From Candidatus Latescibacterota bacterium (GTDB lineage Bacteria > Latescibacterota > UBA2968 > UBA8231), in the NCBI GenBank assembly GCA_965223905.1, contig CBDCXV010000010.1:1280001-1344000 (forward strand): a stretch of DNA of 64,000 nt, read 5' to 3'. Shown here piece after piece: positions 16,175 through 63,187 of this stretch; the stretch's first letter is position 1, and the number at the start of each line of letters is the position of its first letter. Position numbers and translations under genes: made by a program. A model generated the notes under the pieces. It did not search any database. It saw only the letters and a list, made by a program, of their open reading frames with translations, and was not told where the DNA came from.

Positions 16175-19100
16175 TCATCTCAGCAGGGTCATCTTGCGCA
16201 CCAGGGCCCGATCCCCGGCCCTGAGCCGATAGAAGTAGACGCCGGCGGCCACCGGGCGGCCCTGTTCGTCGCGGCCCTCCCAGAAGACATCGTGTATCCC
16301 GGCTTTCAGGGTGCGTCCGGGGATCAGCTTCCTCACCACCTGCCCGGCGAGGCTGTAGACGACCAGGGAGACCTCCCCGGCTTCGGGCACCTGGAAGTAG
16401 ATCGTCGTGCTGGGGTTGAAGGGGTTGGGCGCGGCCAGGGCGGCCAGACCGTCGAGGCCTGTGAGGGCCAGCTGCTCGGCCAGGGCCTTGGCCGCGGCCG
16501 AGCGGGTTATGGCCGATCCCGAGTTTGACCAAGGCCCGGTGCCTTCCTTGCTGGTGGCCTTCAAGCGGACGGTGTACAGGGTGTATGCAGGCAGGCCCGT
16601 CAGCGTCTTACTGGTCACCCGGCCGAGCGTCGTTTCCGAGCATACGGCCTGACGCGGCGCATCGGAGTCGTCCTTCTCCTCCTCCGGCGGATCCTCCTCC
16701 GACCGGAAAGCAGGGTAGCAGTATTGCATGGTGTAGCCGGTGACGGGCGCGCCGCTCGTCGGGTGAGACCAGCTGACCTCGAGTTTGCCCGTGCCCGACG
16801 AAGGCACCCTGACCGTCGGGACCGTCATCTTGCTGGGCGGGCCGATGTCCTGAACGGTGGCGTTGATCAGCTTGTTGCTGTTCGCCGGAGGGTTGGCGTC
16901 GTCAGTAGCCCGGATCCTGACCACATAGATGTTGTTGGTATTCGCATCGGTGGGATCCTCGTAGTCCGGCGCCGACTCGAACCTCAGGGTCAGGCTCGAA
17001 CCCGACGAGGTGAAGGAGAACTCGTCGCTGTCCGTGCTGTAGATGTCCCAGGTAATGCCGTCCCCTTCGGCGTCCGTGGCCGTATACGTGCCCACGGCGG
17101 TGGTGTTCTCGTTGACATTCTGGCGCGCCGTGCCTGAAATCACCGGAGCCGTATTGGCCCGCGTGTAGGTCCTTCGTATGGCCGACCAGGGACTGTCTCC
17201 CTCGTCGCTGGTCGCTTTCACGCGAACCGAGTATCGGGTCCCGGAGCGCAGGTTCTCCAGGGTCGTGCTCGTGGTACCGGCATCGAAGGGCAAGGTGGTC
17301 GTGGAGCTGCAGGCGTTGGTTTGGCAATACTGCAGCTTCCATCCTGTGACTGGGGCATCGCTGGCCGACGTGGACCACCCGACGTCCAGTTCTTCGTGTC
17401 CATTGGTAGCCGGAACCGTGACGGTGACCGTGGGCTTTCCTGGCGGGCCTACGTTTCTGACGCTGACGGTCACCGCCCGGCTGGCCGAGGACGACGACGA
17501 GCAGCCGCCCCGGGCCCGGATCGTGACCTGGTACTGGCGGGAATCGGTCTCGTAGTCGGGGGCGCTGCGGAAGCTCAAGGTGCCCCCGGAGAAATTGAAC
17601 GCGCTCGCGTCGGCCCCTCCCAGCGGCAACCAGCGGCCGCCGCCGCCGTCCGGGTCGCTGAGGGAATAGCTGGCCACCGCGGTGGTGTTCTCGGGGATCG
17701 ACTGGGACGTGGGACCCGAGATCGTCGGGGCACCGCAGTCGGTGCGGCCGCTGCCGGCGGCCCAGCCGCTGGTGCCCTCGTCGTTGGCGGCATTCACCTG
17801 CACTTCGTACGCGGTGTTGGGCGTAAGGCTCGAAATCGTCGTCGAGGTCCCGGTGCCCGAAAACGAGTGCGTGCGCCAGTTTCCCGAGGCCCGGTATTGC
17901 ACGTCGTAGTCGGTGACCGGCGGCCGGCCGCTGGTGTTGGGCGCGTCCCATTCCACCTCCACACTCGTGCGCCCCGCCGCCGACACCCGCACATTGGACG
18001 GCGGTCCCGGCGGCTCGTCGACATCGGTCACGTTCACGGTTACCGTCTCGGTGTCGGACGCCCCCTTCGGGTCCGTCGCCCGGACGGTCAGGCTGTATGA
18101 AGTGGTGCCGCTTTCGTAGCTCGGGGCATTCTGGAAGCTCACCTCGCCGCTGCTACTGATCTGGAAGACGTTCCCGATCACGGACCAGGTGATGGCTTGG
18201 CCTTCCGGGTCCGTGGCCGTGAAGGTGGCTACGGACCGGGTGTTCTCCGGCACGGACTGCGTGCCGGTGTCGTCGATGACCGGCGGCCGGTTCGGCGCCT
18301 TCACCGCAGCGGTAGCGTCGCTCTGCGCGCTCTTGCCCGGACCGTGGGCGTCGGTGTAGCCGACCGTCGCCCGCAGCTGCTTGCCCACATCCGACGTCAC
18401 CGGCGTGTAGCGGGACGTGGCCGCAATGGGGTAGCGCGCCGACCGCTCGATAGGCACCCACCCCGAACTCGCGTCGGCCCGCCGCTGCCACTGCCAGCTA
18501 GTGTCCGCCACGCTCCCGTCTACGTCCACCAGGGTGGCCGTCATCCGCCGACCTACCTCCGGCGACGACGTCGACAAACGCACCGTGCCGGGGGTGTCGG
18601 CCGGCCTCACCGACGACGTCACCGCGCTCTGCGCGCTCTTGTTCGGACCGTGGGCGTCGGTGTAGCCGACCGTCGCCCGCAGCTGCTTGCCCACATCCGA
18701 CGTCATCGGCGTGTAGCGGGACGTGGCCGCAATGGGGTAGCGCGCCGACCGCTCGATAGGCACCCACCCCGAACTCGCGTCGGCCCGCCGCTGCCACTGC
18801 CAGCTAGTGTCCGCCACGCTCCCGTCGACGTCCACCAGGGTGGCCGTCATCCGCCGACCTACCTCCGGCGACGACGTCGACAAACGCACCGTGCCCGGGG
18901 AGTCGCCGTCGTCGTCAACCAGCCTCACCGTAGCGGTTGCGTGCGTGCCCGTGCTCACCCTCTCCGGCAGATCCCCGAATCCCAACGCCACCGACTCGTC
19001 GACCCGGTCGGCATCCTGAGTCGCCGTGACCGTAAACGACTGAGAGGTCGTGCTGCCCGAAAACGACAGCGTGTCTTCCACCCCCGGCCACGTCGCCGTG

Positions 19101-22100
19101 TAGTCGCCCGACTCAGGAGCTCTCGTGATCGGGATCTTCACCAACCGCTCCGCCGCCGCCGACAGCGACACCGTCACCGCCACCGACTCGCCCCCTTCGA
19201 CGGCCTCATACGACGAGCGGCCGAACGTGACCGTCAGCCGCCGGGGTGCAACCAACTCGGCGTACTCCCTGGCCGCCACCTTGCCGGACCCGTGCGCGTC
19301 CGCGTAGTAGACGCGGGCGCTCAGCAACAACCCGGCGTCCCCTGACACCGGCCGGTAGGTCGTGTCCGACGCCACGCGCTGGAGAGCGCGGCCGCCGGGG
19401 CCCGGCTGCCGCGTCTGCCACTGCCAGACCGCGCCGGTCACACCCCCGTCCGGGTCTCTCAGCTGCGCCCTCAGCTGGTGGCCGACCTGGGGCGACGTCG
19501 GCGGCGCCAGGGAGACCACGCCCGGATCGTCCTCGTTGGTGATGCGAACGGACACGCCCAACGTCGTATCCGCTGCCGGCGGCCCGGCGTCTTCGGCTTC
19601 CACGATCACGCTCCAGACGGTGTCCCCGTCAGCGTCCTTCGGGTGTTCGTAGTCGGGCTCCACCAGGAAGCTGAGAACGCCCTGGTCGCTCAGGACCAGC
19701 GTGTCAGACTTGGCATCGGCCCCCGACAGCGTCCACGTGACCCCCGTGGCCAGGCTGCCGTCGTCCGTCCAGCAGGCGCCGTAGTCTTCCACCAGGCCCG
19801 TAGCCCCCTCCGCGAACGTCGTGTCGGCCGCGCCCAGAATCTCCAGCCGCCGGACAGGAGGCGGGGGAGCTGTCGCAACGACCGGATGCGTTTCACCGCT
19901 CTGCGCGCTCTTGCGGTCCTCCTCGTCGGCGCTTTCCCCATCCAGGTAGGAGGCGGTCACCCGCAGCCGATAGCCCACATCGTCCTCCGTCGGCGTGTAA
20001 TAGACATATCCCGGATAGGTGGAGGGAGGCGTCCGCGTTTCCTCATCCGTGGTGGTGGGCTCCCAGCCCGACGAGCCCAGACGCTGCCACTGCTGCGAAC
20101 GCACGTCCACGTTCCCGTCCGGGTCGGTGAGCGTCCCCCTCACCCGCACGTCCACCTGGGGCGTCCCCGTGAGAAACTCGATCCGGCCGGGCCCCTCGTC
20201 CACGTTGGTCACCGTCACCTGAACGGTCAGCGGATTCGACAACAGCGATCCGTCGCTCGTGCGCAGGCTGACCTCGTAGACGTCGTTGCGGTCCGCGTCG
20301 GCGGTGCCCTCGAAATCGGGGAAGTCCGGCCTGTCGGCGAAATACAGCGTGTCGCCGCTGATCCGGAAATGAGCCGCATCCGGGCCTTCTTTCTGCAACC
20401 TGAGCACGTCGTCCGGATTCGGGTCGGTCAGCCGGTAGGTGGCCACCGAGTCCTCCCGGTCCTCGGCGAACAACACCGCGGTGGGACCGTCCGGAGGGTC
20501 CGGCGGCGAGTTGGTCGCCGGCTCCACCAGGGTCACCGCAGCGCCGGCCGGGGAGCCGGCGGTCACCTGCCAGGGCAGCGAACCGAACCCCAGCCTCACC
20601 CTCCCGTCGTCGCCGTCGCCGTCCGGTTTCGCCGTGATCGTGAACGTCCGCGCGGCGTCGCCGTTCGAGAAGGTCAGGGTGTTGCCGCTGCCCAGCCCGC
20701 CCAGGCTGTAGTCGTCCGACTCGGTGCCGGCTTCCCCGGTCGCCTCGATCGGAATGCCCAGCTGCCGGTCCGCGGCCGGTTCCATGCGCACCGTCACCGT
20801 CGCCGCAGCGCCCCCCTCGGCCGCCTGGTACGACTCGGCGCCGAAGAAGACCTGCGCATGAATCACCCGGGCGGTGGAATCGCTCTGCGCGCGCTTGTCC
20901 GGGCCGAGGGCATCCGCATAGCCGACCGTCGCCCGCAGCCGCTTGCCCGCATCCCCTGGTTGCGGCGTATAGCTGGTCAGCCCCGGATAGCGCCCCGCCG
21001 GCAGGGGGGGCTCCCACGCGTCCGTATCCCGGTCCCGGTGCTGCCAATGCCACCCGTCCACCCGGATGCCCCTATCCTGATCGGTGAGCACCGCGGTCAG
21101 CGGCGTGCCCACCCGCGGCGACGACGAGATCAGGGTCACCTCGCCGGGATCGTCCACGTTGGTCACCCGCACCGACACCGGCAAGGCCGCATCCGCCGCC
21201 GGCTGACCGTCGGCGTTGGCCTCCACCGTCACCTCGTAGACCGTGTCTCGGTTGGCGTCGGCCGGATTCTCGTAGTCCGGCGGCTCCTCGAAGCGGAGCC
21301 GGCCCGCATCGTCGATCGTCAGGGTGTCGGCATCGGCCCCCCCGAGGGACCAGGACACCGGCGCGACCGCCTGCCCGTCCGCGGAGAGCGCCCGGTACGG
21401 GGCCACGACGCCCTCCCTCCTCTCGGCGAAGGTGGTATCCTGGGTGCCCACAATCACCAGGGCGCCGGTCGGGCGCTCGGCCAGGGTCAGGGTGGCGCGC
21501 GACGGCGTGCCCGCGCTCACCCCGGCCGGCAACGGCGTCCCGAACCCCAGACTCACCGTCTCGTCGTCTGAATCGGGATCCGCGTTCGCCTGAATCGCAA
21601 ACGACTGCGCCGTGGCCCCCGACTCGAACCACAGCGTGTCGGCCACCCCCGGCCACGTCACCGTGTAGTCGTCTTCCTCGGTCTCCGAATCCGGGGTCAC
21701 CGAAATCGGGATCTTCAGCGCCCGGTCCGTCTCCGGCGATACCGATACCGTCACCGATGCGGTGCCTCCTTCCGTCGCCGAATACGATTCCCTGTCGAAC
21801 GAGACCGTCAGGTCCGGCGGCTCCGGGGATTCTGCCACCGGGCCGATGGCCGCGCTCGCGGCCCCCTTGTCCGGGCCGTGCCCGTCCGTGTAGCTCACCG
21901 TCGCCTGAAGGTACTGCCCTGCATCGGCCGACACCGGCGTATACGCCGCCGCCGTGGCCCCCGAAATCGCGGTCCAGGCCGCCTGATCCGAGGCCCGCCG
22001 ATGCCACTGCCAGCCCGTCACCGCCGCCACCTCGTCCGCGTCGCTCAGCGTCGCCGACAGCTCCGTGCCCACCTGCGCCGTGGCCGGGTCGATCGACACC

Positions 22101-25100
22101 GTCCCGGGCGCATCGTCGTCGTCGACCAGAGACACCGTCGCCGTCGCCGGCGTGCCGGCGCTCACCCCCTCCGGCAGCGGCGTGCCGAAACCCAGCGTCA
22201 CCTCTTCGTCGTCCCAGTCGTCGTCCTGATTCGCCGTGATCGTAAACGTTTGCCGCTCCGCGCCCGAAGAAAACGACAGCGCTCCGTCCGTCAGCCCCGC
22301 CACCGTGAAGTCGCCCGACGGGGGATTGACCGTGATCGGGATGCTCAGCGCCTCCGACGCCGACGGCGACGGCGACAGCCGCACCGTCACCGTCGCCGCC
22401 TCGCCCCCTTCACTCGCCTGATACGCGGCCGCCGCGAAAGACACCGTGCGCCCCGCCGCCGCGGGCGTGGCCGTGGCCTGGGCGGCAGGACCCCACTCCT
22501 GGGGGTTCCCCGCCCGCACCTCGAACGTGTGCGCCTCCCCGTTGGTCAGGCCCTCCACCTGCTGACGACGGGCCGAGCCGTCCCCGGGCACCCGCACCCA
22601 TTTCACCGCCTCCGGACGACGGTATTGATACCTGTCGATGGTGCCCCCGTTGTTGCAGCCCGCCTCCCAAGTCAGCGTCACCTGCCCATCCCCGGGCGCC
22701 GCCTTCAGGTTGGCGGGGGCGCACGGCGGACCCGGTCCCACCGCCCTCGACGCCGTCGCGCTTACTCTTTGCCCGCCGAAGTCGTCGGTATAAGTGACTT
22801 CAACCCACAACCACTGATTGAGATCGCTCACCTGGGGCCTATACTGACGCGTGCGGGCGATCACTCCTAGTTTCGATTCACCGGAGCGCGACCCAGGGGC
22901 CGGCGCCGACAGCGAATCGCCGTCATCGGACCGAGACCACCTCTGCCGGCGCCAGCGCCAGCGCGCCTCTGCCAGCGCCGGGTTGTCCGGGTCGATGAGC
23001 GTCGGCGTCAGCTCCTGACCCACCCGCGGCTGAGTCGTGCTCCACTCCACCCGGCCGCGCGTGTCCGGCCTCTCCGGCGTCGCCGGCACCACGAACGATT
23101 CCGGACCCGTCTTCGTCCCCCGGAGCGCCCGCACCTGAAATTCGTAGGACACCCCGTTGGTCAGACTCCCCACCTCAACCGCCGTCACCGTCGCCCCGGT
23201 GCCGGTCGTTTGCCAGCTATCCGCATCCCAGGTGCCGCCCTCCTGCTTGTACCGGTACGACCACCCCGTGATGCCGGTGAGTCCGGCCGGTACATCCCAA
23301 CTCAACCCGACCGCCCCGGCCCGGGCCTCGGACCGCAAGCCCAGCACCGAAACCTCATTGGATTCCGGACTCTTCTGCTCTTCCGGCCCGATCAGGTACG
23401 CCGTGAACCGATAGGTCTTCCGGTTGTCCAACCGGTTGTCCACCGCCGCCACCGGCGCCGAGAAGGTCAGGCTGCTCGATACCCGTCCCCGCGCTTCCGA
23501 CGATCTCTCACCTGGGGCGCCGAAGGGAATCCCCCCCGTAACGAGTTTCACGAGGTCGTCCCCGGTGAACTCCAGGCACGTCTCGTCCGAACTCGGTCCT
23601 GTACAGCGCTCCAGCACCACATCCTCGAACGGGACCGGGGACACCGGTCCCAGACCCCCGCACGGGACCAGGCTCAAAGACACCCCAAATTCCAACTCGC
23701 CCAACTCGGAAAGCACCCGCAGGGCGAGCGGCTCCCCCCACTCCACTGGCAGGGTCGCGGCGAAGGCCTCCGACTTGGCCTCGTCGCCGCTCATACTGTG
23801 CGCGTCCCGGTAGCGCACCGTCGCCCGAACGGTCCGCCCTACGTCCGGCAACGTGGGCAGGAAAGCCCGGGCAAGTTCACCCAAATCCTCCGGTGCCTGG
23901 AGCACCGGAGTGCCATCTACCAACTCGCCGCCTGCCAGACGGTCCAACGTCCACACCTCGTCAGTCACGGGCCCGTCCGGGTCCTCCAGCCTAACCGTCA
24001 TACAAACACCCATCTTCGGGCTGTCCGTACCAAAACTCACCGTGCCGTCCTCGTCCACGTCGGTCACCGTCACCGTCACCCCGTAATCAGCCGACACGTT
24101 ATCCAGGCTCCCCACCGCCCGCACCCGTACGCGGTAGACGTTGACAGGGTCGTCGGGGTCTCCGCCCTTCGGCTCCTCATAGTCGGGGGCCGAATCGAAA
24201 CTCAACCGGCCCTCCGGGTCGATCGATAAATCATCGTTGTCGTAGTCCTCGTTTTCGTCCTCCACCAGCGACCAGGTGACCGAATCACCGATAAGGGAAC
24301 TGGCCGTGTAGGTTTCCACCGGGTCCGTGCCGATCTCGGCAAACTCAACCGCGCTCTCCCCCGAGATCATGCCGCAGTCCGAAAACGTCGCGTTCGACAT
24401 CGTCAGGGTGCCGTCAGACTCCAGGCAGTTCGTCCCATGGCGGAAAGTGACGTTGCTGAGGTCGGCTGTGCCCCCGCTTTCGACCCGGATGCCGTGCCAG
24501 TCGTCGTTCGACGGCGTAGCGCTGGCCGAACCAAAGGCAACCTCCCCGCCGGCAACCCCGCTTACAACGAGGGTGCCGCCATCCGCCACGATGAGCTCCG
24601 AGCGGGACGCGTCACTGCCGCCGCCGGTACCGTCGCTGCCGGCCGCAAAGCGGACCTCGGTCCCCTCGGTGACGGTCAGCGTCACCTCCTCCGCCTCCGC
24701 CACACCGTCCACGATGACCTCGCGCACAATGACATCGCCGTCGACATGGATGGTGCCCGACCACTCGCTGTCCCCGACCAGCTCGCCCGACCACGGGGTG
24801 GGACCGGTGGAGACGTGGAAGTTGTCGAGAAACAGGGTGTTGTCGGCAGGAGAACTGTATTTGCCGCCGTAGTGGATGTCCGCCCAGGCTCGGTTGATCC
24901 CGATGGTATCGGCGGTCGTATATCGCAGCTCATAGTTGCACAGGGCATTCTCTTTCTTCCCGTTGATCCAGACTTCGATGAGGCCGTTGGATTCGATGAT
25001 CGGATCCGTATCGTTCATCTTGATGCGCTGCTCGATGCGATACCATTGGCCCATCTGATGGTGCGGCAGGAGGTCCCATTCTACTCCATCGCTGCCGGAG

Positions 25101-25801
25101 GGGAAATGATCTCCGGTCCCGCAACTGTGATCGGTGTTTCCGCACTTCTGGTCGAGGTGGTAGACGTAGGAGATCGGCGACCATTCATCGTTAGTATATT
25201 CCGGTCCCCTTCCCGCCAACATGCGGGCCGACCATCCCAGTGAGTCGGGTTCCTGGGGCCACATGCCCCCCGACCCTGATTTATGGGTGCCCGCCAGACC
25301 CGGGATCTTTACTACATGGGCTTTGGCGCCGGCGGGTCTGAAAACCCAGCTTGGATCCAATTTAATGTGATAGCGCAAGTACATCTCGTCATTATCCGGG
25401 ACAAACGAGTCGCGAATCGGTTGCCCCTTCTTCCAGGTGGTATCGACGGCAGCGTCCCCCCGGACGACCTGACCCCCGAGGTAATAGCTGATGCTTCGGC
25501 CATAGTGGGGGGATTCGGGATCCCCTTCCATATTTGGGATAAACACCTTCAAAGACCGGTTGGCAATGACTCCCGACGCGTAGGTTATATCGAGGGTTGC
25601 CCTTTCTGGAAGACCACCTTGGATATGATTGAACTTGACATGGGGCAGGGCTTGGTTCTCGGTGTTAATCATCTTGTCGTTGTGATCCGCCCAGGTGCGG
25701 AGGATGGCTCGGTCCTCGAAGTCCTGCGCGAAATAGGTCGTATCCTGTGCCGAAACATGGACGCTCAAACACAGCAGACTCAGGTATATCGCCTTTTTCA
25801 T
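16175..25801 (-). CDS. Giant secreted protein (3208 aa): polysaccharide-lyase-like N-terminus, cadherin/FN3/Calx-beta-like repeats, C-terminal FlgD-Ig sorting-type domain
   Basis: Signal peptide; KIPGLAG, GWSARM, YVYH, WYRIEQRIKMN, NGLIEVWING; many PDYE cadherin motifs; FN3 (GLTNG..Y); C-terminal APNPFNPSTTI...GVYFYRL...KMTLLR. Confidence 0.88.
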   Translation of the reverse strand: MKKAIYLSLLCLSVHVSAQDTTYFAQDFEDRAILRTWADHNDKMINTENQALPHVKFNHIQGGLPERATLDITYASGVIANRSLKVFIPNMEGDPESPHYGRSISYYLGGQVVRGDAAVDTTWKKGQPIRDSFVPDNDEMYLRYHIKLDPSWVFRPAGAKAHVVKIPGLAGTHKSGSGGMWPQEPDSLGWSARMLAGRGPEYTNDEWSPISYVYHLDQKCGNTDHSCGTGDHFPSGSDGVEWDLLPHHQMGQWYRIEQRIKMNDTDPIIESNGLIEVWINGKKENALCNYELRYTTADTIGINRAWADIHYGGKYSSPADNTLFLDNFHVSTGPTPWSGELVGDSEWSGTIHVDGDVIVREVIVDGVAEAEEVTLTVTEGTEVRFAAGSDGTGGGSDASRSELIVADGGTLVVSGVAGGEVAFGSASATPSNDDWHGIRVESGGTADLSNVTFRHGTNCLESDGTLTMSNATFSDCGMISGESAVEFAEIGTDPVETYTASSLIGDSVTWSLVEDENEDYDNDDLSIDPEGRLSFDSAPDYEEPKGGDPDDPVNVYRVRVRAVGSLDNVSADYGVTVTVTDVDEDGTVSFGTDSPKMGVCMTVRLEDPDGPVTDEVWTLDRLAGGELVDGTPVLQAPEDLGELARAFLPTLPDVGRTVRATVRYRDAHSMSGDEAKSEAFAATLPVEWGEPLALRVLSELGELEFGVSLSLVPCGGLGPVSPVPFEDVVLERCTGPSSDETCLEFTGDDLVKLVTGGIPFGAPGERSSEARGRVSSSLTFSAPVAAVDNRLDNRKTYRFTAYLIGPEEQKSPESNEVSVLGLRSEARAGAVGLSWDVPAGLTGITGWSYRYKQEGGTWDADSWQTTGTGATVTAVEVGSLTNGVSYEFQVRALRGTKTGPESFVVPATPERPDTRGRVEWSTTQPRVGQELTPTLIDPDNPALAEARWRWRRQRWSRSDDGDSLSAPAPGSRSGESKLGVIARTRQYRPQVSDLNQWLWVEVTYTDDFGGQRVSATASRAVGPGPPCAPANLKAAPGDGQVTLTWEAGCNNGGTIDRYQYRRPEAVKWVRVPGDGSARRQQVEGLTNGEAHTFEVRAGNPQEWGPAAQATATPAAAGRTVSFAAAAYQASEGGEAATVTVRLSPSPSASEALSIPITVNPPSGDFTVAGLTDGALSFSSGAERQTFTITANQDDDWDDEEVTLGFGTPLPEGVSAGTPATATVSLVDDDDAPGTVSIDPATAQVGTELSATLSDADEVAAVTGWQWHRRASDQAAWTAISGATAAAYTPVSADAGQYLQATVSYTDGHGPDKGAASAAIGPVAESPEPPDLTVSFDRESYSATEGGTASVTVSVSPETDRALKIPISVTPDSETEEDDYTVTWPGVADTLWFESGATAQSFAIQANADPDSDDETVSLGFGTPLPAGVSAGTPSRATLTLAERPTGALVIVGTQDTTFAERREGVVAPYRALSADGQAVAPVSWSLGGADADTLTIDDAGRLRFEEPPDYENPADANRDTVYEVTVEANADGQPAADAALPVSVRVTNVDDPGEVTLISSSPRVGTPLTAVLTDQDRGIRVDGWHWQHRDRDTDAWEPPLPAGRYPGLTSYTPQPGDAGKRLRATVGYADALGPDKRAQSDSTARVIHAQVFFGAESYQAAEGGAAATVTVRMEPAADRQLGIPIEATGEAGTESDDYSLGGLGSGNTLTFSNGDAARTFTITAKPDGDGDDGRVRLGFGSLPWQVTAGSPAGAAVTLVEPATNSPPDPPDGPTAVLFAEDREDSVATYRLTDPNPDDVLRLQKEGPDAAHFRISGDTLYFADRPDFPDFEGTADADRNDVYEVSLRTSDGSLLSNPLTVQVTVTNVDEGPGRIEFLTGTPQVDVRVRGTLTDPDGNVDVRSQQWQRLGSSGWEPTTTDEETRTPPSTYPGYVYYTPTEDDVGYRLRVTASYLDGESADEEDRKSAQSGETHPVVATAPPPPVRRLEILGAADTTFAEGATGLVEDYGACWTDDGSLATGVTWTLSGADAKSDTLVLSDQGVLSFLVEPDYEHPKDADGDTVWSVIVEAEDAGPPAADTTLGVSVRITNEDDPGVVSLAPPTSPQVGHQLRAQLRDPDGGVTGAVWQWQTRQPGPGGRALQRVASDTTYRPVSGDAGLLLSARVYYADAHGSGKVAAREYAELVAPRRLTVTFGRSSYEAVEGGESVAVTVSLSAAAERLVKIPITRAPESGDYTATWPGVEDTLSFSGSTTSQSFTVTATQDADRVDESVALGFGDLPERVSTGTHATATVRLVDDDGDSPGTVRLSTSSPEVGRRMTATLVDVDGSVADTSWQWQRRADASSGWVPIERSARYPIAATSRYTPMTSDVGKQLRATVGYTDAHGPNKSAQSAVTSSVRPADTPGTVRLSTSSPEVGRRMTATLVDVDGSVADTSWQWQRRADASSGWVPIERSARYPIAATSRYTPVTSDVGKQLRATVGYTDAHGPGKSAQSDATAAVKAPNRPPVIDDTGTQSVPENTRSVATFTATDPEGQAITWSVIGNVFQISSSGEVSFQNAPSYESGTTSYSLTVRATDPKGASDTETVTVNVTDVDEPPGPPSNVRVSAAGRTSVEVEWDAPNTSGRPPVTDYDVQYRASGNWRTHSFSGTGTSTTISSLTPNTAYEVQVNAANDEGTSGWAAGSGRTDCGAPTISGPTSQSIPENTTAVASYSLSDPDGGGGRWLPLGGADASAFNFSGGTLSFRSAPDYETDSRQYQVTIRARGGCSSSSSASRAVTVSVRNVGPPGKPTVTVTVPATNGHEELDVGWSTSASDAPVTGWKLQYCQTNACSSTTTLPFDAGTTSTTLENLRSGTRYSVRVKATSDEGDSPWSAIRRTYTRANTAPVISGTARQNVNENTTAVGTYTATDAEGDGITWDIYSTDSDEFSFTSSGSSLTLRFESAPDYEDPTDANTNNIYVVRIRATDDANPPANSNKLINATVQDIGPPSKMTVPTVRVPSSGTGKLEVSWSHPTSGAPVTGYTMQYCYPAFRSEEDPPEEEKDDSDAPRQAVCSETTLGRVTSKTLTGLPAYTLYTVRLKATSKEGTGPWSNSGSAITRSAAAKALAEQLALTGLDGLAALAAPNPFNPSTTIYFQVPEAGEVSLVVYSLAGQVVRKLIPGRTLKAGIHDVFWEGRDEQGRPVAAGVYFYRLRAGDRALVRKMTLLR
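18320..18895. repeat. Near-exact intragenic tandem duplication, 306-bp period (102 aa)
   Basis: ctctgcgcgctctt at 18321 and 18627; the PGTVRLSTSSPEVG...KSAQS module is repeated almost base for base. Confidence 0.93.
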
Positions 25802-49721: not shown

Positions 49722-49780
49722 TTGCAATTCATCATCGACGCTGATCTTCCACGCGCTGTAGCCCGTGTGATCGCCGATAA
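49722..49780 (+). pseudogene. DUF5615 PIN-like toxin, N-terminal stub
   Basis: MQFIIDADLPRAVA directly after DUF433, then truncated. Confidence 0.65.
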
Positions 49781-49808
49781 GTACGCATCAACCTCAAGGG
49801 AGGAAACT

Positions 49809-52433
49809 GTGAGCATGAAGACGATAATACCGCGCGCACTCACCCCTGGCCGGCTCGCCATCTTCGCCGCGCTGTTGTCCCTGTCGGCCACGGCCACCGC
49901 GACGGCCCAGACAACCGGAACGATCGAGGGCACGGTCGTCGACGAGAACGGCTTCTCCTTGCCCGGCGTCCTGGTGACGGCGACCGGTTCCGGCGTGCGC
50001 GAGGAAAGCGTGACCGACGTCGCCGGCTCCTACGGGTTCGCCGGCCTTGCCGCCGGGGACTATCTCGTAACGGCGACCCTGCCTGGTTTCGATCCCGTCG
50101 AGCGTCGGGTCTCTGTCCAGGCGGGCGCCACCGAAACCGTCCCGCTCGTTCTGCAGGTCCCATTGCTTCTCGATACGCTCAGCGTCGTCGCCGACGAACC
50201 CCGGACTTTCGCGCGCAACGTCGTCCCCGTGCCGATGATCCGGCAGCAGTCGAACATCACCAGCGTCGCCGCGGTGGTGGACAACCTCCCCGGGGTATCC
50301 ATCCAGGAGGGGGACGCGTACGGGTTCGACGACTGGTCGAACAATGCCGTCGTGCGCGGCTTCCAGGTGACCATCAGCGAGGCGCAGATCGGCACCACCG
50401 TCGACGGCTTTCCCAACGGCACCTCCGACTACTTCAGCGGCGCCAAAGCGAACCGGTTCATCGACCCGATGAACCTCGGAGGGGTCGAGGTGTCGCAGGG
50501 GACGGCCGACATAGCCTCCCGGTCGGTCGAGGCGCTGGGCGGCACCTTCAACTACCGGACGGACGATCCGGCGGCGGAGCGGACCTACACCGCGTCGACC
50601 ACCCTCGGCGAGAACGACGGCAAGCGCTTCTCCATGCGGGTCGACACCGGACCGTTGTTCGGCGGTGAGACGCGCGCCTGGATCGCCGCGGTCCGGCAGG
50701 AGGCGACCGACTGGGTGCAGGGCTCGGCGAGGAACGAACGGGAGCACATCGCCGCCAAGATGGTTTCGCCGCGCGGGCGCCTCGATCTCACCGGCTACCT
50801 CTCCTACGACGATATCCACGAGGATACCTACCAGCGGATCTACGGCGAGGCCGATTTCCGGGCGAACCCGCGCTGGGACCGGCTGGTCGGCGACTGGCCC
50901 GGGGTGCCCTACCTCAACCAGTTCTACCGGCCCGGCTGGCAGACCCGGCGCACCAACACGCTCGCCTACCTCAAGGCCGACTGGCCGTTCAGCGAGCTCA
51001 GCAACCTGAGCGCCGGCGCCTACTACCATCGCAACAGGGGCCGCGGCGACTGGCTGCCCCCTTACATAGTCGACGTGGTCGACGACGGGGATGGACCCGA
51101 GTCGGAGCTGGCGGGCCTCCCACCGGTGCGGGGCGGCGATCAGCCCGGGCTCATCCGCTTCGTGGACGGCAACGGCGTTGCCGTCGCACCGGCGCCCGAC
51201 TGCGAGTCGTCCTACATCTACAACTACTACGGCTCGGGAGGCCCGGAGGTCGACCCGGCCTGCCACCCGGGGGCCACGGCAGTGCAATCGTACCGCCACA
51301 GCCACTACGGGAAGGATCGCCTCGGCGCAACCCTCGACGGGGAATGGTCCACTTCCATTGGCGGGGCCGGCAGCGCCCTGCGTGCCGGGATCTGGTACGA
51401 GGGCTCGCGGCGCGACCTCGGCCGGGACTGGCACCGGATGCTGGATCCGGCGCTCAGCTTCAAGTGGGACGAGCGGCCCTACTGGCACCAGTACGAGTGG
51501 GACTTCCCGCAGCACGTCTTCAAGTGGTACCTGGAGGAGACGCTTTACGCCGGTGCGCTGGCCCTGAGCGCCGGCATCAAGCAGTTCCGGATCGGCGTGT
51601 CGCGCGAGGACAAGTTCGATGTCGACCCGGAACTGACGGTCGATTCCGATTCGGATCTGCTCTTCTCGGGGGGTGTCACCTACGAGACGCCGGTGGCGGG
51701 CCTCGACCTGTTCGCCGGCTATGCGGAGAACTTCAAGGCGATCAGCAGCACGCTGCTCGAAGTCCCGGGCAGGAGTCTGGACCTCCTCGAACCCGAGACC
51801 GCCTCGAACATCGACGTGGGGCTGCAGTATGTCGGCGAACGGGTCGCGTTGAGCGCCGCCTGGTACTCCATCGATTTCCAGAACCGGATCTTCTACCTCG
51901 GCCCGCAGACGACCGCCGGTCCCAACTACCTCATCCCCGGGGGCGGAGCCTACTTCAACGCGGGGGGTATCGAAACGAGCGGGGTCGAGCTGTCCGCCAC
52001 GGTGCCGTTGCCGAATCGGACCTCGTTCTACACAGCGGTCACCTTCAACGACTCGAAATACATAGGGACCGGCGATCCGCTCGTCGACGACAACCAGGGC
52101 ATCGTGCCCGGCACCGACGTTGCGGGCGTACCGGGCCGGCTGTGGGTCCTCTCGCTCGACCGCAGCGGGCCGCTTGCCGGCGGCCTGTCCGCCAAGTACA
52201 CGTCGCCGCGGCGCGTCAGTCTGGCCGCGGACTGGGACACGGACGCCTACTGGCTGGTGGACGCCTACGTCAGTTTCTCGGGGGGAGCGTTGAGCGATCA
52301 GCTGCGGTCGGCGGAGTTCTCGATCGTGGCGAACAACCCGCTCGACAAGGCCTATCTGTCCGCAATCACCGAGAATGCCGCCTGGCTGGGCGCGCCGCGC
52401 ACGGTTTCAGTGACTGCGACCGTCTCCTTCTGA
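49809..52433 (+). CDS. TonB-dependent receptor with N-terminal carboxypeptidase-regulatory-like domain
   Basis: Signal peptide, TGTIEGTVVD..G.SLPGV, plug (LPGV, VRGF, DGFPN), LEPETA, GVEL, NxLDKAY, GAPRT, terminal F. Confidence 0.9.
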   Translation: MSMKTIIPRALTPGRLAIFAALLSLSATATATAQTTGTIEGTVVDENGFSLPGVLVTATGSGVREESVTDVAGSYGFAGLAAGDYLVTATLPGFDPVERRVSVQAGATETVPLVLQVPLLLDTLSVVADEPRTFARNVVPVPMIRQQSNITSVAAVVDNLPGVSIQEGDAYGFDDWSNNAVVRGFQVTISEAQIGTTVDGFPNGTSDYFSGAKANRFIDPMNLGGVEVSQGTADIASRSVEALGGTFNYRTDDPAAERTYTASTTLGENDGKRFSMRVDTGPLFGGETRAWIAAVRQEATDWVQGSARNEREHIAAKMVSPRGRLDLTGYLSYDDIHEDTYQRIYGEADFRANPRWDRLVGDWPGVPYLNQFYRPGWQTRRTNTLAYLKADWPFSELSNLSAGAYYHRNRGRGDWLPPYIVDVVDDGDGPESELAGLPPVRGGDQPGLIRFVDGNGVAVAPAPDCESSYIYNYYGSGGPEVDPACHPGATAVQSYRHSHYGKDRLGATLDGEWSTSIGGAGSALRAGIWYEGSRRDLGRDWHRMLDPALSFKWDERPYWHQYEWDFPQHVFKWYLEETLYAGALALSAGIKQFRIGVSREDKFDVDPELTVDSDSDLLFSGGVTYETPVAGLDLFAGYAENFKAISSTLLEVPGRSLDLLEPETASNIDVGLQYVGERVALSAAWYSIDFQNRIFYLGPQTTAGPNYLIPGGGAYFNAGGIETSGVELSATVPLPNRTSFYTAVTFNDSKYIGTGDPLVDDNQGIVPGTDVAGVPGRLWVLSLDRSGPLAGGLSAKYTSPRRVSLAADWDTDAYWLVDAYVSFSGGALSDQLRSAEFSIVANNPLDKAYLSAITENAAWLGAPRTVSVTATVSF

Positions 52434-52452: not shown

Positions 52453-53372
52453 ATGAGGGCGACGTTGCTTCCGATGTTGGTGCTGGCATTCTACCTGATT
52501 GCCGCGGGCAGCTCCGTGCAGGCGCATTGGGGGGATCGGGTGTACCCCATATACGAACTGACGGAGAGCATGCTGGCAGATATCGATGTGACGGATGGCT
52601 TGATCGATGAATGGCAGGAGATTGGGCCGCCTTCAGCGACGGGTCTGGACTTTTCAGTCTTCTCCTTGTGGGAGGAGCCGGAATACGATCCATCCGATCT
52701 GGATTTACGGCTGTGGTTGGGTTGGTCGGCGTCTCAGAGCCGGATCTACGTGGCTCTGGCATGCGTGGACAACGTGGGGGTCAATCGGACCAACTACGAC
52801 CCCGCAGACGAACACTTGCCACTCGATGGATTCGGCTTCTACGTCGATGCCGATCACAGCGGCGGCGATTTTTTTCCGACGGCCGCCCCTGACTAAGTGA
52901 AGAGTACAAGCTGCAGGACGACGCCCAAGTACAGAGTTACGGCATCTCGCCAGATGTACCACCCGGCGAGGATAATATTCTGGGCATGTCGGCTTGGGCG
53001 GACTGGCCGGAGGAGCCGCCCTTTGGCCAAGGATTCGGAATCACACACGGGGAAAACCCGTCTATTTGGGTTGTCGAGTTTTACCTGACGCCGTTTGACC
53101 TCTTTGTGTATTCGGGGGCGGAAGAGAGTGCCGTCTCGGCCCTGTCCGCCGGCAAGGTCATTGGTTTCAGATGTCTGGTTAACGATGCCGACGGCGGCGT
53201 TTTATTCACGGAGAATTTCAAGAGATACCTTCTGCCCGCGATGGGTCTGGACGCACACCTAGAGAACGAAGTCAACGCGGATTCGTTTGCTGATGGGGTT
53301 CTGATCGGAGCAGAAGGTACGGTGGTCGAAGATCTCACCTGGGGCCGGATCAAGGCGTCGTTGGACAGATGA
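52453..53372 (+). pseudogene. Secreted sugar-binding-like protein with WGRIK tail; frameshift near 52893
   Basis: Signal peptide, DGLIDEW, DLDLRLWLGW, VDADHSGG; second frame VEFYLTPFD...TVVEDLTWGRIKAS. Confidence 0.65.
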
Positions 53373-53467
53373 TTGCGGCAGTGCCTGTCAGGGGACTTGA
53401 CCGCCGTAAGCAATACCACCGTGTGGGAGTATCTGATTACGACCGTTCAGCCAAATACGTACCATCG

Positions 53468-53532
53468 TTTCGGATAAGTAACCCTCGGGCGGTTGTTATC
53501 CGAACAATTGGTTCGGGTACAATCAGTTAGGC
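53468..53532 (+). other. Putative integron attI-like site heading the cassette array
   Basis: First GTTAGGC core (53526-53532) has no upstream attC hairpin; it is preceded by ttcggataa/ttatccgaa and ccgaac/gttcgg inverted repeats. Confidence 0.55.
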
Positions 53533-53865
53533 GAAGGCATAAGAAAAAATGGATGGATTTGGTGGAGTATAGATCATGAGAGGGTGTTGGAGAGTTCGGG
53601 CTGGCGCTTTGCAGTGGAGGAGCATTTACGGAGATGGTCGCCTCGTCGCACGTGATTTCCCAACCCCGTCCGGCGCGCTAATACCGCTTGGGCGTTGCGT
53701 TTTACCTGGTCAAGAAATGATGAAATCAATGGGCAGTTGGGGAGATCGGGACCTGCGGATTGGGAGACCGACGAAAGATGGAGGGCTGAGGAGGGGCGCC
53801 GGACGGCCTCTCCACCACCCAAGCCCGAGAGTTTCTCCCATCGTGGTCGATCCGAGCAGGCCCTC
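53533..53865. other. ORF-less cassette A (candidate ncRNA or promoter cassette)
   Basis: No credible ORF; paralog of 54924-55255. Confidence 0.7.
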
Positions 53866-53949
53866 GCCTAACACCTGTTCCCCCGGCTTCGGGCCCTGCG
53901 GGCCCTCCGCCAAACCGCTGTGCGGTTCGGGGGCACTGAGACGTTAGCC
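53866..53949 (+). other. attC 1
   Basis: GCCTAAC...GTTAGCC, 84 bp. Confidence 0.9.
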
Positions 53950-53953
53950 GCAA

Positions 53954-54721
53954 GTGGCATTACAACTGACCCATTCCGTGACCAACATGCTGAGCGAGAT
54001 CTACCGGACGAGTTTCGAGTGGGCCAAGCTGGGTGGCCATATCATCGAACACCGTTTTGGAGTCACCGTTTACAACTTGGACCACCCTGAGTACAACGAG
54101 AATAACTGCCTTTGGTATTTCGATCCAGGATTGGCGGATGAGTTTACTTTCCAGGTGGTTGTGGCGGAATTCGAAAGCCTGGGTGTGAGCTGCTCTCAAT
54201 GGGTTCCTTCCCCTTCCGCCAATCTGGATTTATGTGACAATTACTTCCGTGTTCATGAGATGGCTGATTCACCAGGAGAAGGCTTATTGCTCGATCTTGA
54301 TAGGGAATACCACGCTGACGCGAGAATCTGCGCGAAACGCAGCAACAAGCAATCCCTTGCGCAGGTCTATTCCTTGAGTGGCCAGAGATCAACTAGCACT
54401 GTCACGAGGAACAAAGCCTTATCTCTTTTGGGGATAGCGAACTACGAATCGTATGTTTGCTACTGGGATGGGGAACTGGCGGGCAGAGCTGGACTGCTGA
54501 GGGTTCCGGGAAAAGTCGCTCGATTGAAGAGCATTTTCGTCGGCGCCACATTTCGCCGTCAGGGAGTTGCTAGCAGCCTGATAAGGGTGATCGCCACCAA
54601 AGCGAGGGAACTGGGGTACCGCTATCTAGCGTCCGAAGTAGACCCTTCCAACGAGGCGTCGTCGGAATGTCATCGAAAGGTAGGGTTCAAAACCGCAGGG
54701 CTTGTTCACGCGTACAAATGA
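53954..54721 (+). CDS. GNAT-family acetyltransferase (cassette)
   Basis: FVGATFRRQGVASSL; N.AS..CHRKVGF. Confidence 0.85.
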   Translation: MALQLTHSVTNMLSEIYRTSFEWAKLGGHIIEHRFGVTVYNLDHPEYNENNCLWYFDPGLADEFTFQVVVAEFESLGVSCSQWVPSPSANLDLCDNYFRVHEMADSPGEGLLLDLDREYHADARICAKRSNKQSLAQVYSLSGQRSTSTVTRNKALSLLGIANYESYVCYWDGELAGRAGLLRVPGKVARLKSIFVGATFRRQGVASSLIRVIATKARELGYRYLASEVDPSNEASSECHRKVGFKTAGLVHAYK

Positions 54722-54839
54722 CTCGGAGATGGACATCACGCCTATTCCTCGGAGTGAAAGATCAAAACCAGTTGTGTACGTTGTGCCGGCTTTTTAAGGC
54801 CAACCGCGGTTTCTTCGCGTCGAAGGCCAAGCCACCAGC

Positions 54840-54923
54840 GGCTAACACGCCGGGCTGCGGCTCCGGCCATCCGGCCTTCGCCCAACCCGCTTCGCGGGTT
54901 CGCAGCCCACGAAAGCGTTAAGC
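54840..54923 (+). other. attC 2
   Basis: GGCTAAC...GTTAAGC, 84 bp. Confidence 0.9.
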
Positions 54924-55255
54924 GAAGGCCAAGGAAAATTTGATTGATTTGGTGGAGTATAGGTCATGATAGGCTGTTGCGGAGTTCGGGGTGGTCCCTC
55001 GCGGTGAGGAAGCATTTGCAGAGATGGGCGGCTCGTCGCACGTGATTCCCCACCCCGTCCGGCGCGCTAATACCGCTTGGGCGTTGCGTTTTACCTGGTC
55101 AGGAAAAGACGAGATCAATGGGCAGTTGGAGAGGTCGGGACCTGCGGATTGGGAGACCGACGAAAGATGGAGGGCTGAGCAAGGGCGCCGGACGGCCTCT
55201 CCACCGCCCAAGCCCGAGAGTTTTCTCCCATCGTGGTCGGGCAGAGCAGGCCCTC
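54924..55255. other. ORF-less cassette B (paralog of A)
   Basis: Colinear with cassette A, with long identical blocks and 1-bp indels. Confidence 0.7.
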
Positions 55256-55340
55256 GCTTAACACCTGTGTCCCCGGCTCCGGGCCCTGCGGGCCCCTCGC
55301 GCAACCGCTTCGCGGTTCGGGGGCACGGAAGACGATATAT
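55256..55340 (+). other. attC 3 (R' = GATATAT)
   Basis: GCTTAAC...GATATAT; body resembles attC 1. Confidence 0.85.
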
Positions 55341-55432
55341 GACATGGGTTGTCACAGTACCAGTGAAATTCGACAGAGGCAAAGCTGGCACGGTTGAAAT
55401 CATGAGCCTGCAGGCGCTGGAGAAAAACTGAC

Positions 55433-55924
55433 GTGGATCGCGTAGCCGTATTCGCAGATGTACAGAATGTTTACTACACAGTTAAGCAGCAACATAATTG
55501 CCATTTCGACTATGGTTCTTTCCTCAGGGAGGCGACAGCCGGCCGGAAACTGGTGAAGGCAGTAGCCTATGCTATTGACAAAGGCGACAGAAAGCAGGCC
55601 CAATTTCAGAAAATTCTGAAACGGCTCGGTTTTGAGGTAAAGCTCGCGCCTTATATTCAGAGAGCTGACGGCTCAGCCAAAGGGGACTGGGACGTGGGCA
55701 TTACGGTCGATATGTTGGAGTACGCAGATCGCGTGGATGTCGCTGTCCTGGCTTCAGGTGACGGAGACTACGCGCCTGCAATTGACAAGCTAATCAAGGA
55801 ATCCAAGGTATCCGTCGAGGTGTACGGTGTCCCAGGACTAACTGCTAGTCGTCTAATCGAATCGGCGACGCGATTTGTGCCAATTCAAGGAGATCTGTTG
55901 CTGCCTATTCCCACCACGTGGTGA
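55433..55924 (+). CDS. NYN-domain (LabA/DUF88) protein (cassette)
   Basis: FADVQNVYY, KGDWDVGITVD, SGDGDY, VEVYGV. Confidence 0.9.
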   Translation: MDRVAVFADVQNVYYTVKQQHNCHFDYGSFLREATAGRKLVKAVAYAIDKGDRKQAQFQKILKRLGFEVKLAPYIQRADGSAKGDWDVGITVDMLEYADRVDVAVLASGDGDYAPAIDKLIKESKVSVEVYGVPGLTASRLIESATRFVPIQGDLLLPIPTTW

Positions 55925-56021
55925 CGTGGAAGCGACACTGTTGCAAAGCCATGCACGCTAACGCACTCTCGCGTCGCTACCTCTCTGCGTTGATCAGCCT
56001 TGGAGCAATCATACCCACGTC

Positions 56022-56111
56022 ATATATCACAGCAATTCACGCTGCCGCCATTCGGCGCTTGGCCTTCGGCAAGTCGCTTTCGCGACTTCGTGAATTGTGA
56101 GAACGTTACAT
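56022..56111 (+). other. attC 4 (R'' = ATATATC)
   Basis: ATATATC...GTTACAT; caattcacg/cgtgaattg L boxes. Confidence 0.85.
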
Positions 56112-58757: not shown

Positions 58758-59507
58758 ATGCTGGAGGAACAGGTGGCCGGAAGTAGAGATGATCTCAGAG
58801 AGGCGGTAGAGCGCGGCGACCTCTCCACTGTCAAACGGCTGTTACATACGGAGCCAGGTCTTCTCCACGAGTCCATCCCTCCATGCGATGATCGCAAACA
58901 ACGAGGCCAGATTCTCAGATACCGACCGATGACGCTCGCCGCCGTGGAGTGTCAGACAGAAATTCTCTCTTTTCTGATTGCCGAGGGGGGCGATGTGATG
59001 GAGTACAGCAATTTTCCACTCTGTCGAGCATCACTCTACGACCGTTGTATTCCAACTCTGGAGTTACTGGTTCAGCATGGCGCAGAGGTAAATCGAGTCG
59101 GTAATGACTACGGTCCGCCGTTGATATTCGCGTGCGAAGGAATGGCCCTCGATTGCATCGCATGGTTGCTGGACAACGGCGCGGCAATCACAGGGACTGG
59201 TCCGAGTTTATCTGAAACCGTGTCTTGGAATGCCCTCAAACATGCGGGCTTCTTCAACCGGAAGTGTTCGGGCATGCTTGATTTGCTCCTCGAGCATGGC
59301 GCTGACGTCAACAGTTCAGTTGTTGATGAGGTTGGCGGAGATCCTGAGACTACGGTACTGCACAATGTCGTGGAAAGCGGGGATATTGCTGGCGTGGAGC
59401 TCCTGCTTACCCATGGGGCTGACCAAGATGCCAAAAATGGCAAGGGACAGCGCCCGGTCGAGGTGGCTCGGGAACGCAAAGTCAGAGAACTACTAGAGAA
59501 CATCTGA
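58758..59507 (+). CDS. Ankyrin-repeat protein (cassette)
   Basis: Repeated LL.HGA.VN and PL..A motifs; KNGKGQRP. Confidence 0.85.
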   Translation: MLEEQVAGSRDDLREAVERGDLSTVKRLLHTEPGLLHESIPPCDDRKQRGQILRYRPMTLAAVECQTEILSFLIAEGGDVMEYSNFPLCRASLYDRCIPTLELLVQHGAEVNRVGNDYGPPLIFACEGMALDCIAWLLDNGAAITGTGPSLSETVSWNALKHAGFFNRKCSGMLDLLLEHGADVNSSVVDEVGGDPETTVLHNVVESGDIAGVELLLTHGADQDAKNGKGQRPVEVARERKVRELLENI

Positions 59508-61991: not shown

Positions 61992-62306
61992 ATGCCGAAA
62001 TCACATAGCCCGTATCCGCCGGAATTCCGGCAACAGATGGTTGAGCTCGTACGGGCGGGTCGTAGCCCGGAGGCGTTGGCCAAGGAATTCGAGCCGTCCG
62101 GGCAGACGATCCGCAACTGGGTGATCCAGGCCGAACGCGATGAGGGGGTGCGTCGCGACGGGCCGAGCCGCCCCGAACAGGAGGAGCTGCGGCGCCTTCG
62201 CCGTGAGAACAAGCAACTGCGTATCGAACGGGGGATCCTGGCAAAAGCCACGGCCTGGTTCGCTCGCGAGGCCGACTCGGGGTCCGGCCCGTCTACGAGT
62301 TCATGA
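61992..62306 (+). CDS. IS3 OrfA
   Basis: YPPEFRQQMVEL HTH, EELRRLRRENKQL zipper; AAAAG slip site at 62243-62247. Confidence 0.9.
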   Translation: MPKSHSPYPPEFRQQMVELVRAGRSPEALAKEFEPSGQTIRNWVIQAERDEGVRRDGPSRPEQEELRRLRRENKQLRIERGILAKATAWFAREADSGSGPSTSS

Positions 62307-63187
62307 GAGCGCACCAGGCCGACTTTCCGGTGTTCACGATGTGCCGCGTGCTGAAGGTGTCCCCCAGCGGCTACTACGCCTGGTTGAAGCGCCCGCCGTC
62401 GGGTCGCACTCGGGCCGATGCGGTGCTCAAGGCGCGCGTCGAGCAGATCCACCAACGCTCCCGAGGCACTTACGGGGCGCCGAGGATCCGGGCCGAACTG
62501 GCCGAGGAGGGGCGCGGCGTCAGTCGCAAGCGCATCGCCCGATTGATGCTCGAGCTCGGGGTGCGTGGGGTATGCGGGCGGCGCCGGATCTCCACGACCC
62601 GCCGCAGCCGGCAGGGCCGGGTCGCCTCCGACCTGGTCAACCGGGTGTTTTCGGCCTCGGGCCCGAATCTGCTGTGGGTTGCCGACATCACCTACCTGCC
62701 CACCGCTTCGGGTTTTTTGTATCTGAGTGTGGTGGTCGACGCCTGGAGCCGCCGGGTGGTGGGCTGGGCTATGGCGAGCCATCTGCGTACGCAGCTGGTG
62801 CTCGACGCCCTTGACATGGCCCTGTACCGGCGTCGCCCCCACTCGGTAATCCACCACTCCGATCACGGCAGTCAGTATACGGCCCTGGCCTTCGGGCAAC
62901 GCTGTCGCCAGGCCGGGGTGCGCCCGTCGATGGGATCGGTCGGTGACTGCTACGACAATGCCCTGTGCGAAAGCTTTTTCGCCACGCTGGAAAGGGAGTT
63001 GTTGGATCGTCATCGGTTTGCTACCCATGCCGAGGCCCGGCTAGCTGTTTTCGAGTACCTGGAAGGCGGGTACAATCGCCAGCGGCGGCATTCCGCCCTG
63101 GGACAACGGTCTCCCGTCAACTACGAGAGATATCACCAATCAGAGAGTGTAGATCCAAACGCAAAACTGTCCGTGAAATCGGGGTAA
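62303..63187 (+). CDS. IS3 OrfB DDE transposase
   Basis: YGAPRI, WVADITY, HHSDHGSQY, DNALCESFF, YNRQRRHS; ATGA overlap with orfA. Confidence 0.93.
   Translation: MRAHQADFPVFTMCRVLKVSPSGYYAWLKRPPSGRTRADAVLKARVEQIHQRSRGTYGAPRIRAELAEEGRGVSRKRIARLMLELGVRGVCGRRRISTTRRSRQGRVASDLVNRVFSASGPNLLWVADITYLPTASGFLYLSVVVDAWSRRVVGWAMASHLRTQLVLDALDMALYRRRPHSVIHHSDHGSQYTALAFGQRCRQAGVRPSMGSVGDCYDNALCESFFATLERELLDRHRFATHAEARLAVFEYLEGGYNRQRRHSALGQRSPVNYERYHQSESVDPNAKLSVKSG

Follow-up and report, generated by a model that had tools for sequence, protein, structure and literature searches.

Of all the components of chromosomal integrons, gene-less cassettes are the least understood; those put to the test have been found to switch on arrays that are otherwise silent. 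Cassettes of this kind with promoter activity have been described in the superintegrons of the Vibrionaceae (PMC11014356) and in Treponema from oral metagenomes (PMC6557892). An RNA product has been proposed for a non-coding cassette of Xanthomonas campestris, described as encoding the trans-acting small RNA (sRNA) sRNA-Xcc1 (Chen et al. 2011, as cited in PMC8876359), and the DUF1874 motif, one of a set of attC-like structured motifs, which recurs between open reading frames (ORFs) in integron-like arrays, has been described as a candidate attC (PMC5737381). The present analysis concerns two paralogous units, cassettes 1 and 3, at the head of a cassette array in the 7.9-Mb genome of a Candidatus Latescibacterota bacterium; the window, that is, the whole stretch of DNA analysed, comprises 64,000 nucleotides (contig C10, 1280001-1344000). 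Both units fall into a category already described, that of gene-less integron cassettes, and are distinguished there as a paralogous, mobile and unevenly constrained family. Their most likely role, tentatively held, is that of a sense-strand RNA element built around a long-range helix.

A preliminary description of this DNA had reported two colinear units of about 417 bp that share long identical blocks, differ by 1-bp indels and alternate with coding cassettes at the array head, and each of these observations was borne out. The units measure 417 and 418 bp (Table 1), the quoted blocks are both present and identical in the two, three 1-base indels separate them (columns 17, 135 and 313 of alignment A2), and they alternate with a GNAT acetyltransferase cassette (cassette 2) and a NYN-domain cassette (cassette 4). 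In A2 the bodies agree in 295 of 335 columns (88%) and the attC sites in 71 of 83 (86%); a pairwise alignment that includes the flanks gives a mean column identity of 91%, and within the genome the likeness lies far past chance (BLAST E = 4e-144). Four DNA copies of the family were found: cassettes 1 and 3 themselves, and a tandem pair, copies A and B, in a second genome of the same genus (G002). An attC hairpin is predicted in all four, with the R''/R' core sites by which integron cassettes are recognised (RYYYAAC / GTTRRRY). In addition, the 5' hexamer complements the unit's own R'', TTAGGC with GCCTAAC in cassette 1 and TTAAGC with GCTTAAC in cassette 3 and copy A; pair 8/350, which joins this hexamer to R'', is AU in two copies, GC in one and AC in one, copy B having the one mismatch, and it co-varies between cassettes 1 and 3.

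Comparison of the two genomes bears directly on mobility. In G002, copies A and B occupy array positions 2 and 3 and are followed by the same NYN cassette that follows cassette 3. Cassette 3 and copy A have the same attC in 82 of 83 columns, yet cassette 3 is joined to the NYN cassette exactly as copy B is. Such a hybrid, of copy A-like sequence with a copy B junction, is what excision or insertion would leave, and we therefore infer that the genomes differ by the precise presence of copy B in G002 and its absence here, with the crossover at G|TT. The claim that the element travels as its own cassette is thereby upheld, by its own attC, by the 5' hexamer matching its own R'' and by the presence and absence of one copy at G|TT, and on these sequence marks the units were confirmed as genuine, separately mobile integron cassettes. 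The accompanying claim, that the element controls the gene behind it, found no support, since the downstream neighbour changes from copy to copy, being the GNAT cassette, the NYN cassette, another family copy or, in a contig from one of the runs, unrelated sequence. The element showed no tie to one particular downstream gene, save that a family copy stands before the NYN cassette in both genomes.

As judged from its reading frames, the cassette body is non-coding and encodes no conserved protein. An ATG common to all four copies, eight bases after GGAG, opens ORFs of 123, 13, 17 and 125 amino acids (aa), and the two long ones (123 and 125 aa) do not share a frame where they cross the conserved blocks. 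Identity of copy B to the other copies is 62-65%, with indels of 2, 4, 4 and 1 bases, which are not multiples of three. Synonymous and non-synonymous differences, counted in six frames over every ungapped block, gave no convincing synonymous excess, and Pfam holds no match for the 123-aa plus-strand frame of cassette 1 or for a 161-aa minus-strand frame over cassette 3. The statement that no frame is kept end to end therefore agrees with the indels, the shifted ATG-led frames and the want of a convincing synonymous bias. A small ORF with synonymous bias in homologues, which had been named as the observation that would speak against a non-coding cassette, was looked for, and none is conserved in the four copies. 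It is the absence of a conserved frame, of synonymous bias and of a Pfam match that makes the units gene-less; by the formal 210-bp ORF-length cut-off used in PMC11014356 they fail to qualify, their GC-rich sequence producing spurious ORFs of 123-161 aa. A role in translation coupling for the ATG-led ORF was considered and rejected, two of the four copies stopping after 13 and 17 codons.

A coding reading, in which the units hold a small protein gene or pseudogenes of one (candidates would be the 161-aa minus-strand and the 123-aa plus-strand frame), is accordingly very improbable and largely refuted. Long open frames do exist, gene callers have predicted proteins on related DNA, and the best synonymous signal, six synonymous against four non-synonymous codon differences between cassettes 1 and 3 (columns 136-312), lies in one minus-strand frame. 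That 6:4 count, however, has n = 10 and is one among many frame-by-block tests. The 161-aa frame, moreover, has no start codon within the cassette: its start lies in the neighbouring next cassette, from which it crosses the attC. It is open in cassette 3 only, a frameshift breaking it in cassette 1 and in copy A, and a stop as well as a shift in copy B. No Pfam family was matched, and among 5.8 billion clusters and 1.84 billion representatives the true hits were frame-hopping ORFs on family DNA only.

Those protein searches, run with the spurious ORFs, yielded five mis-called metagenome proteins on family DNA (P0001-P0005), whose ORFs hop between the frames of cassette 3 and copy A DNA and which reveal a few further copies. 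One of them spans two tandem copies and one runs on into an attI-like region. The copy behind P0001 measures about 60 nt less in its body, and the missing stretch, as its position is reconstructed, probably includes part of the C-rich block. A further candidate, P0006, was rejected as an unrelated repeat protein. At the DNA level the family is very restricted: BLAST found full copies in 2 of 61 relatives and in 2 of 168 genomes of the phylum, five others holding only chance pieces of 20-29 nt, and covariance model R1 found them in 2 of 151 genomes, a third genome scoring E = 0.6. An nhmmer search of the own genome returned the two copies and no more. An exact-pattern scan of a large collection of genome contigs gave three stretches, the G002 record and two unrelated ones, while a gapped two-arm pattern gave a single stretch in metagenome contigs, its likeness limited to the two arms. 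The plasmid collection, searched in distant mode (the phage collection and viral contigs lay outside this search), gave no match.

The four copies show the body, of about 325 nt, to be under uneven sequence constraint. Three blocks outside the attC are conserved, namely the 5' block with GGTGGAG, TATAGA and ATG, the region of the left arm of an inverted repeat, and the right arm with the C-rich stretch behind it; relative to cassette 3, copy B is unchanged in 19, 17 and 18 of 20 columns of these blocks, but in no more than 6-9 of 20 across the interior. The interior, of about 115 nt and variable in length, and a 72-column module vary freely. In this hypervariable module (columns 62-133), which has invariant flanks on either side, cassette 3 and copy A differ in 30 of 72 columns, compared with four substitutions and four indel columns over columns 134-342 and one of 83 columns in the attC. 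Cassette 3 is a mosaic: its module is closer to that of cassette 1 (16 differences in 72 columns) and its remainder is closer to G002 copy A (locus L013, 1501-1918), which suggests that the family copies recombine with one another.

This pattern also bears on the reading in which the units are selfish or decaying cassettes, non-functional remnants, for instance of a former gene, that persist and multiply solely because their attC is a good substrate of the integrase and owe their patchy identity to recent duplication and recombination. In favour of this reading, the family is very small and limited to a single genus, its copies lie in tandem or near the array head and are mosaic, long non-homologous frames are open on both strands, and one metagenome copy is some 60 nt shorter. 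Neutral decay, however, predicts even divergence, whereas copy B, 65% identical, keeps 17-19 of 20 columns in the three non-attC blocks and, in the interior, 6-9 of 20. Nor does this patchiness have an obvious cause in recent gene conversion by the tandem neighbour, because the attC of copy B is about equally like the other three (73 of 82, 75 of 83 and 74 of 83 columns). The only two changes in the 22 positions of the inverted-repeat arms, furthermore, are complementary partners. We regard the selfish or decaying cassette as unlikely.

The long-range inverted repeat is the feature on which an RNA reading is built. Both pairings noticed at the outset exist: CCGTCCGGCGC/GCGCCGGACGG is a perfect inverted repeat of 11 nt that recurs in cassette 3, and TGGGAGA/TCTCCCA is a 7-bp complement. 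The repeat extends to 13 of 14 positions, its arms are 106-119 nt apart across the copies, and it is kept in all four, with one double change from C-G to U-A (copy B) and one change from U-A to U-G (cassette 1). The domain that it bounds folds better than dinucleotide shuffles (z -2.0 to -3.8). A consensus computed with RNAalifold carries six double changes, against 1.5 in shuffles, and one of 500 shuffles reaches this value; the figure is biased, because the structure was derived from the same four sequences. A further 8-bp pairing, GATCATGA/TCGTGGTC, needs two G-U pairs and would therefore be possible on the plus strand only. The pairing GGTGGAG/CTCCACC shows no informative variation, and its right-hand partner may be missing in the P0001 copy, as far as the position of the lost stretch can be placed. 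A second complement, of 12 nt (GCTTGGGCGTTG/CACCGCCCAAGC), is present in three copies and lost in copy B, where about half of the 12 positions are complementary, and was dropped. An interpretation of the inverted repeat as a miniature inverted-repeat transposable element was likewise rejected, there being no other copies in the genome.

Besides the bias just mentioned, several results weigh against a structured RNA. Only four DNA copies, found in two genomes of a single genus, were available to the structure tests. For the body as a whole the folding energies are unremarkable (z +0.29, -0.42 and -0.27), as they are for the interior alone (z -1.25 to +0.87) and the 5' region alone (z -0.01 to +1.92). 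On the minus strand the inverted repeat gives a fold signal of the same strength (z -1.9 to -2.7), so that single-stranded DNA or a symmetric protein site would match it too; the difficulty of telling RNA from single-stranded DNA by sequence alone has been pointed out in connection with the DUF1874 motif (PMC5737381). Structures derived from the three close copies and scored on copy B keep 8-9 of 26-34 changed pairs, against 9-17 of 25-37 in slid controls, and the two double changes seen in four hand-picked helices, TGGGAGA/TCTCCCA among them, are matched by 37 of 500 shuffles. Rfam 15, searched over the whole window at gathering scores, gave no match, and at E values up to 10 it gave two chance hits (E about 7). 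Of the proposed structured RNA, one part thus stands, a long-range helix of 11-13 bp present in four copies with a compensatory change, and the rest does not, since the remaining fold fails on the divergent copy and the energies are ordinary. The two checks that had been suggested came out accordingly, with no Rfam family and with covariation that fails the fair test on the divergent copy and is limited in its support to one helix. Past that helix, the predicted structures offer weak evidence of an RNA fold.

The block-wise conservation, without a conserved interior structure, is also what would be expected of regulatory DNA, in which the conserved blocks are promoter or protein-binding DNA serving neighbouring cassettes; an antisense promoter would point to attI/intI. 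It has been reported that most of 29 gene-less Vibrio cassettes have sense promoter activity (PMC11014356), and antisense promoters are attributed to oral ORF-less cassettes (PMC8876359, describing PMC6557892). None of the DNA copies stands further back than the third array position, and the array here has no integrase gene beside it and hence, possibly, no cassette promoter (Pc). Furthermore, the invariant AGTATA reads TATACT on the minus strand, and the symmetric double change in the inverted repeat also fits a dimeric DNA-binding protein. On the other side, no acceptable -35 element precedes the minus-strand TATACT, and a sigma-70-type scan found no site in either cassette, which is weak evidence either way, as the promoter consensus of the phylum may differ. 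The internal promoter that had been envisaged was therefore not recovered, no sigma-70-like site being found in cassettes 1 or 3 by a kind of scan that is uninformative for gene-less cassettes (PMC11014356); section 23 of that paper reports that promoter predictions disagreed with experiment for such cassettes. A promoter or other regulatory DNA cassette is, in our estimate, a possible but somewhat unlikely explanation.

With regard to transcription, the same sigma-70-type scan placed the single hit of the region in the NYN cassette; it found no terminator-like site, which, like the want of a promoter-like site in either cassette, counts against the RNA reading. Contigs of 4 of 23 runs were compared. 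One contig from an RNA library (X22, 238 nt, depth 2.5) covers 55138-55334, half of cassette 3, and then continues into different downstream sequence. It is a low-depth assembly that reveals neither strand nor ends, and DNA carry-over is possible, so that it amounts to a hint of transcription at most. Neither cassette 1 nor the 5' half of cassette 3 is covered by an RNA-library contig, and contig data of this kind are uninformative on absence. Two RNA runs labelled sponge metagenome contain small parts of the stretch.

Taken together, the reading that we prefer, a sense-strand RNA element built around the long-range helix, is the likeliest of those considered and still a tentative one. The body would act as a sense-strand RNA that is co-transcribed with the array. 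In this RNA the helix of 11-13 bp would clamp the length-variable interior of about 115 nt, and it would be flanked by the G-rich conserved 5' block, with its Shine-Dalgarno-like GGAG and ATG, and by the C-rich conserved 3' block, which could pair with it. The RNA might then influence how the cassette transcript is expressed or processed, or it might work in trans. The copies themselves are moved and duplicated by the integron machinery. A bolder version, in which the units form a new RNA class travelling as its own cassette in sponge-associated Latescibacterota, with a length-variable insert clamped by the conserved helix, an adjacent hypervariable 72-nt module, set between invariant blocks, that possibly specifies targets, and perhaps a function as RNA partner or regulator of the NYN ribonuclease cassette, seems to us quite improbable.

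The features of the locus are collected in Table 1. About ten attC sites were counted in the window, from repeat families and from reading of the sequence, and attC-like matches go on for at least 5 kb past it. Some 70 nt upstream of cassette 1 are conserved with the attI region of G002, the comparison covering 53330-53526 of the window and 240-480 of the G002 locus L013. Beside this attI-like region G002 has an open frame of 320 aa with a two-piece match to the integron-integrase model TIGR02249 (120 and 104 bits), the pieces, scored apart, lying below the 265-bit cut-off; the N-terminus of the frame matches Phage_int_SAM_4. No integrase gene adjoining the array was found here, either in the window or in a TIGR02249 search of the own genome, whose best match is on another contig. 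That best integron-integrase-like frame has 323 aa and scores 127 and 84 bits to TIGR02249; it lies on contig C1 at 1175160-1175970 (loci L007 and L008), far from the array. Upstream of the attI-like region there are instead two ORFs without Pfam family, 52453-52896 and 52986-53372, which may be one frameshifted gene (a T run lies near 52875), and a TonB-dependent receptor gene at 49722-52433.

The NYN cassette begins with ATATAT and not with TTRRRY. Here its own attC opens with a matching R'', ATATATC, so that its R box would be the non-canonical G|ATATAT; in G002 the NYN cassette (L013, 2331-3029) ends in a stub and not in a full attC, consisting of ATATAT and about 10 nt of a family-type attC end. 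Elsewhere in the array, one cassette encodes an ankyrin-repeat protein (58758-59507; Pfam Ank_2, E = 1e-18), and an IS3-type transposase with rve core and HTH_21 domains lies inside the array (ORF 62303-63187, region 62140-63187). A giant open reading frame of 3208 aa occupies 16175-25801 on the minus strand of the window.

Table 1. Coordinates, within the window, of the two gene-less cassettes, their parts and the adjoining array features
Feature	Position	Strand	Remarks
attI-like region	53456..53526	+	Ends at G of first G|TT crossover; conserved with G002 region beside integron-integrase-like gene (alignment A4)
Gene-less cassette 1	53527..53943	+	417 bp; array position 1; cut at G|TT crossover of R' box
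Conserved 5' block, cassette 1	53561..53579	+	GGTGGAG, TATAGA, ATG; resembles Shine-Dalgarno and start codon; 18 of 20 columns (41-60) invariant in four copies
Hypervariable module, cassette 1	53584..53655	+	A2 columns 62-133; 72 columns
Inverted repeat left arm, cassette 1	53666..53676	+	11 nt; 100% complementary; 119 nt between arms
Inverted repeat right arm, cassette 1	53796..53806	+	Partner of 53666..53676
C-rich conserved block, cassette 1	53807..53859	+	CTCTCCACC, CCCAAGC, TCTCCCA, TCGTGGTCG; 14-18 of 20 columns invariant in four copies (columns 281-340)
attC of cassette 1	53866..53943	+	R'' GCCTAAC to crossover G of GTTAGCC; repeat family D2
Cassette 2	53944..54916	+	GNAT acetyltransferase gene, ORF 53954-54721; Pfam PF00583, E = 6e-15; own attC (families D5-D7)
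Gene-less cassette 3	54917..55334	+	418 bp; paralogue of cassette 1; array position 3
Inverted repeat left arm, cassette 3	55055..55068	+	14 nt; 93% complementary; 113 nt between arms
Inverted repeat right arm, cassette 3	55182..55195	+	Partner of 55055..55068
attC of cassette 3	55256..55334	+	R'' GCTTAAC (55256-55262) to crossover G, then ATATAT instead of TTRRRY
Cassette 4	55335..56105	+	NYN-domain gene, ORF 55433-55924; Pfam PF01936, E = 1e-37; directly after a family copy in both genomes, same junction in G002

Unlike an ordinary single orphan cassette, the family is paralogous, demonstrably mobile and unevenly constrained, and it provides a defined sequence with which promoter and RNA function can be tested in a phylum that has no cultured members. 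What it contributes at present is an example and not a principle, and the case for a structured RNA is that of one helix. Among known systems, the nearest are the gene-less cassettes of the Vibrionaceae and Treponema, which, similarly to the units described here, are bounded by attC, contain no real gene, share a chromosomal array with coding cassettes and have a proposed influence on the cassettes next to them. The Latescibacterota units differ from them in having no predicted promoter, and in carrying long spurious ORFs by which they fall outside the 210-bp ORF cut-off set out in section 18 of PMC11014356. With sRNA-Xcc1 they share a non-coding cassette and a proposed RNA product; the transcript evidence on the Latescibacterota side is without defined ends, and no Rfam family of any kind matches there. 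Like the DUF1874 motif, they present a conserved nucleic-acid structure that recurs in an integron-like array; in their case, however, the attC is a normal one, and the conserved helix is separate from it, within the body of the cassette. Finally, what sets them apart from the Vibrionaceae and Treponema cassettes is that they are paralogues of one family, marked by a hypervariable module and by a long-range inverted repeat that is conserved, and that their host is an uncultured member of the Latescibacterota.

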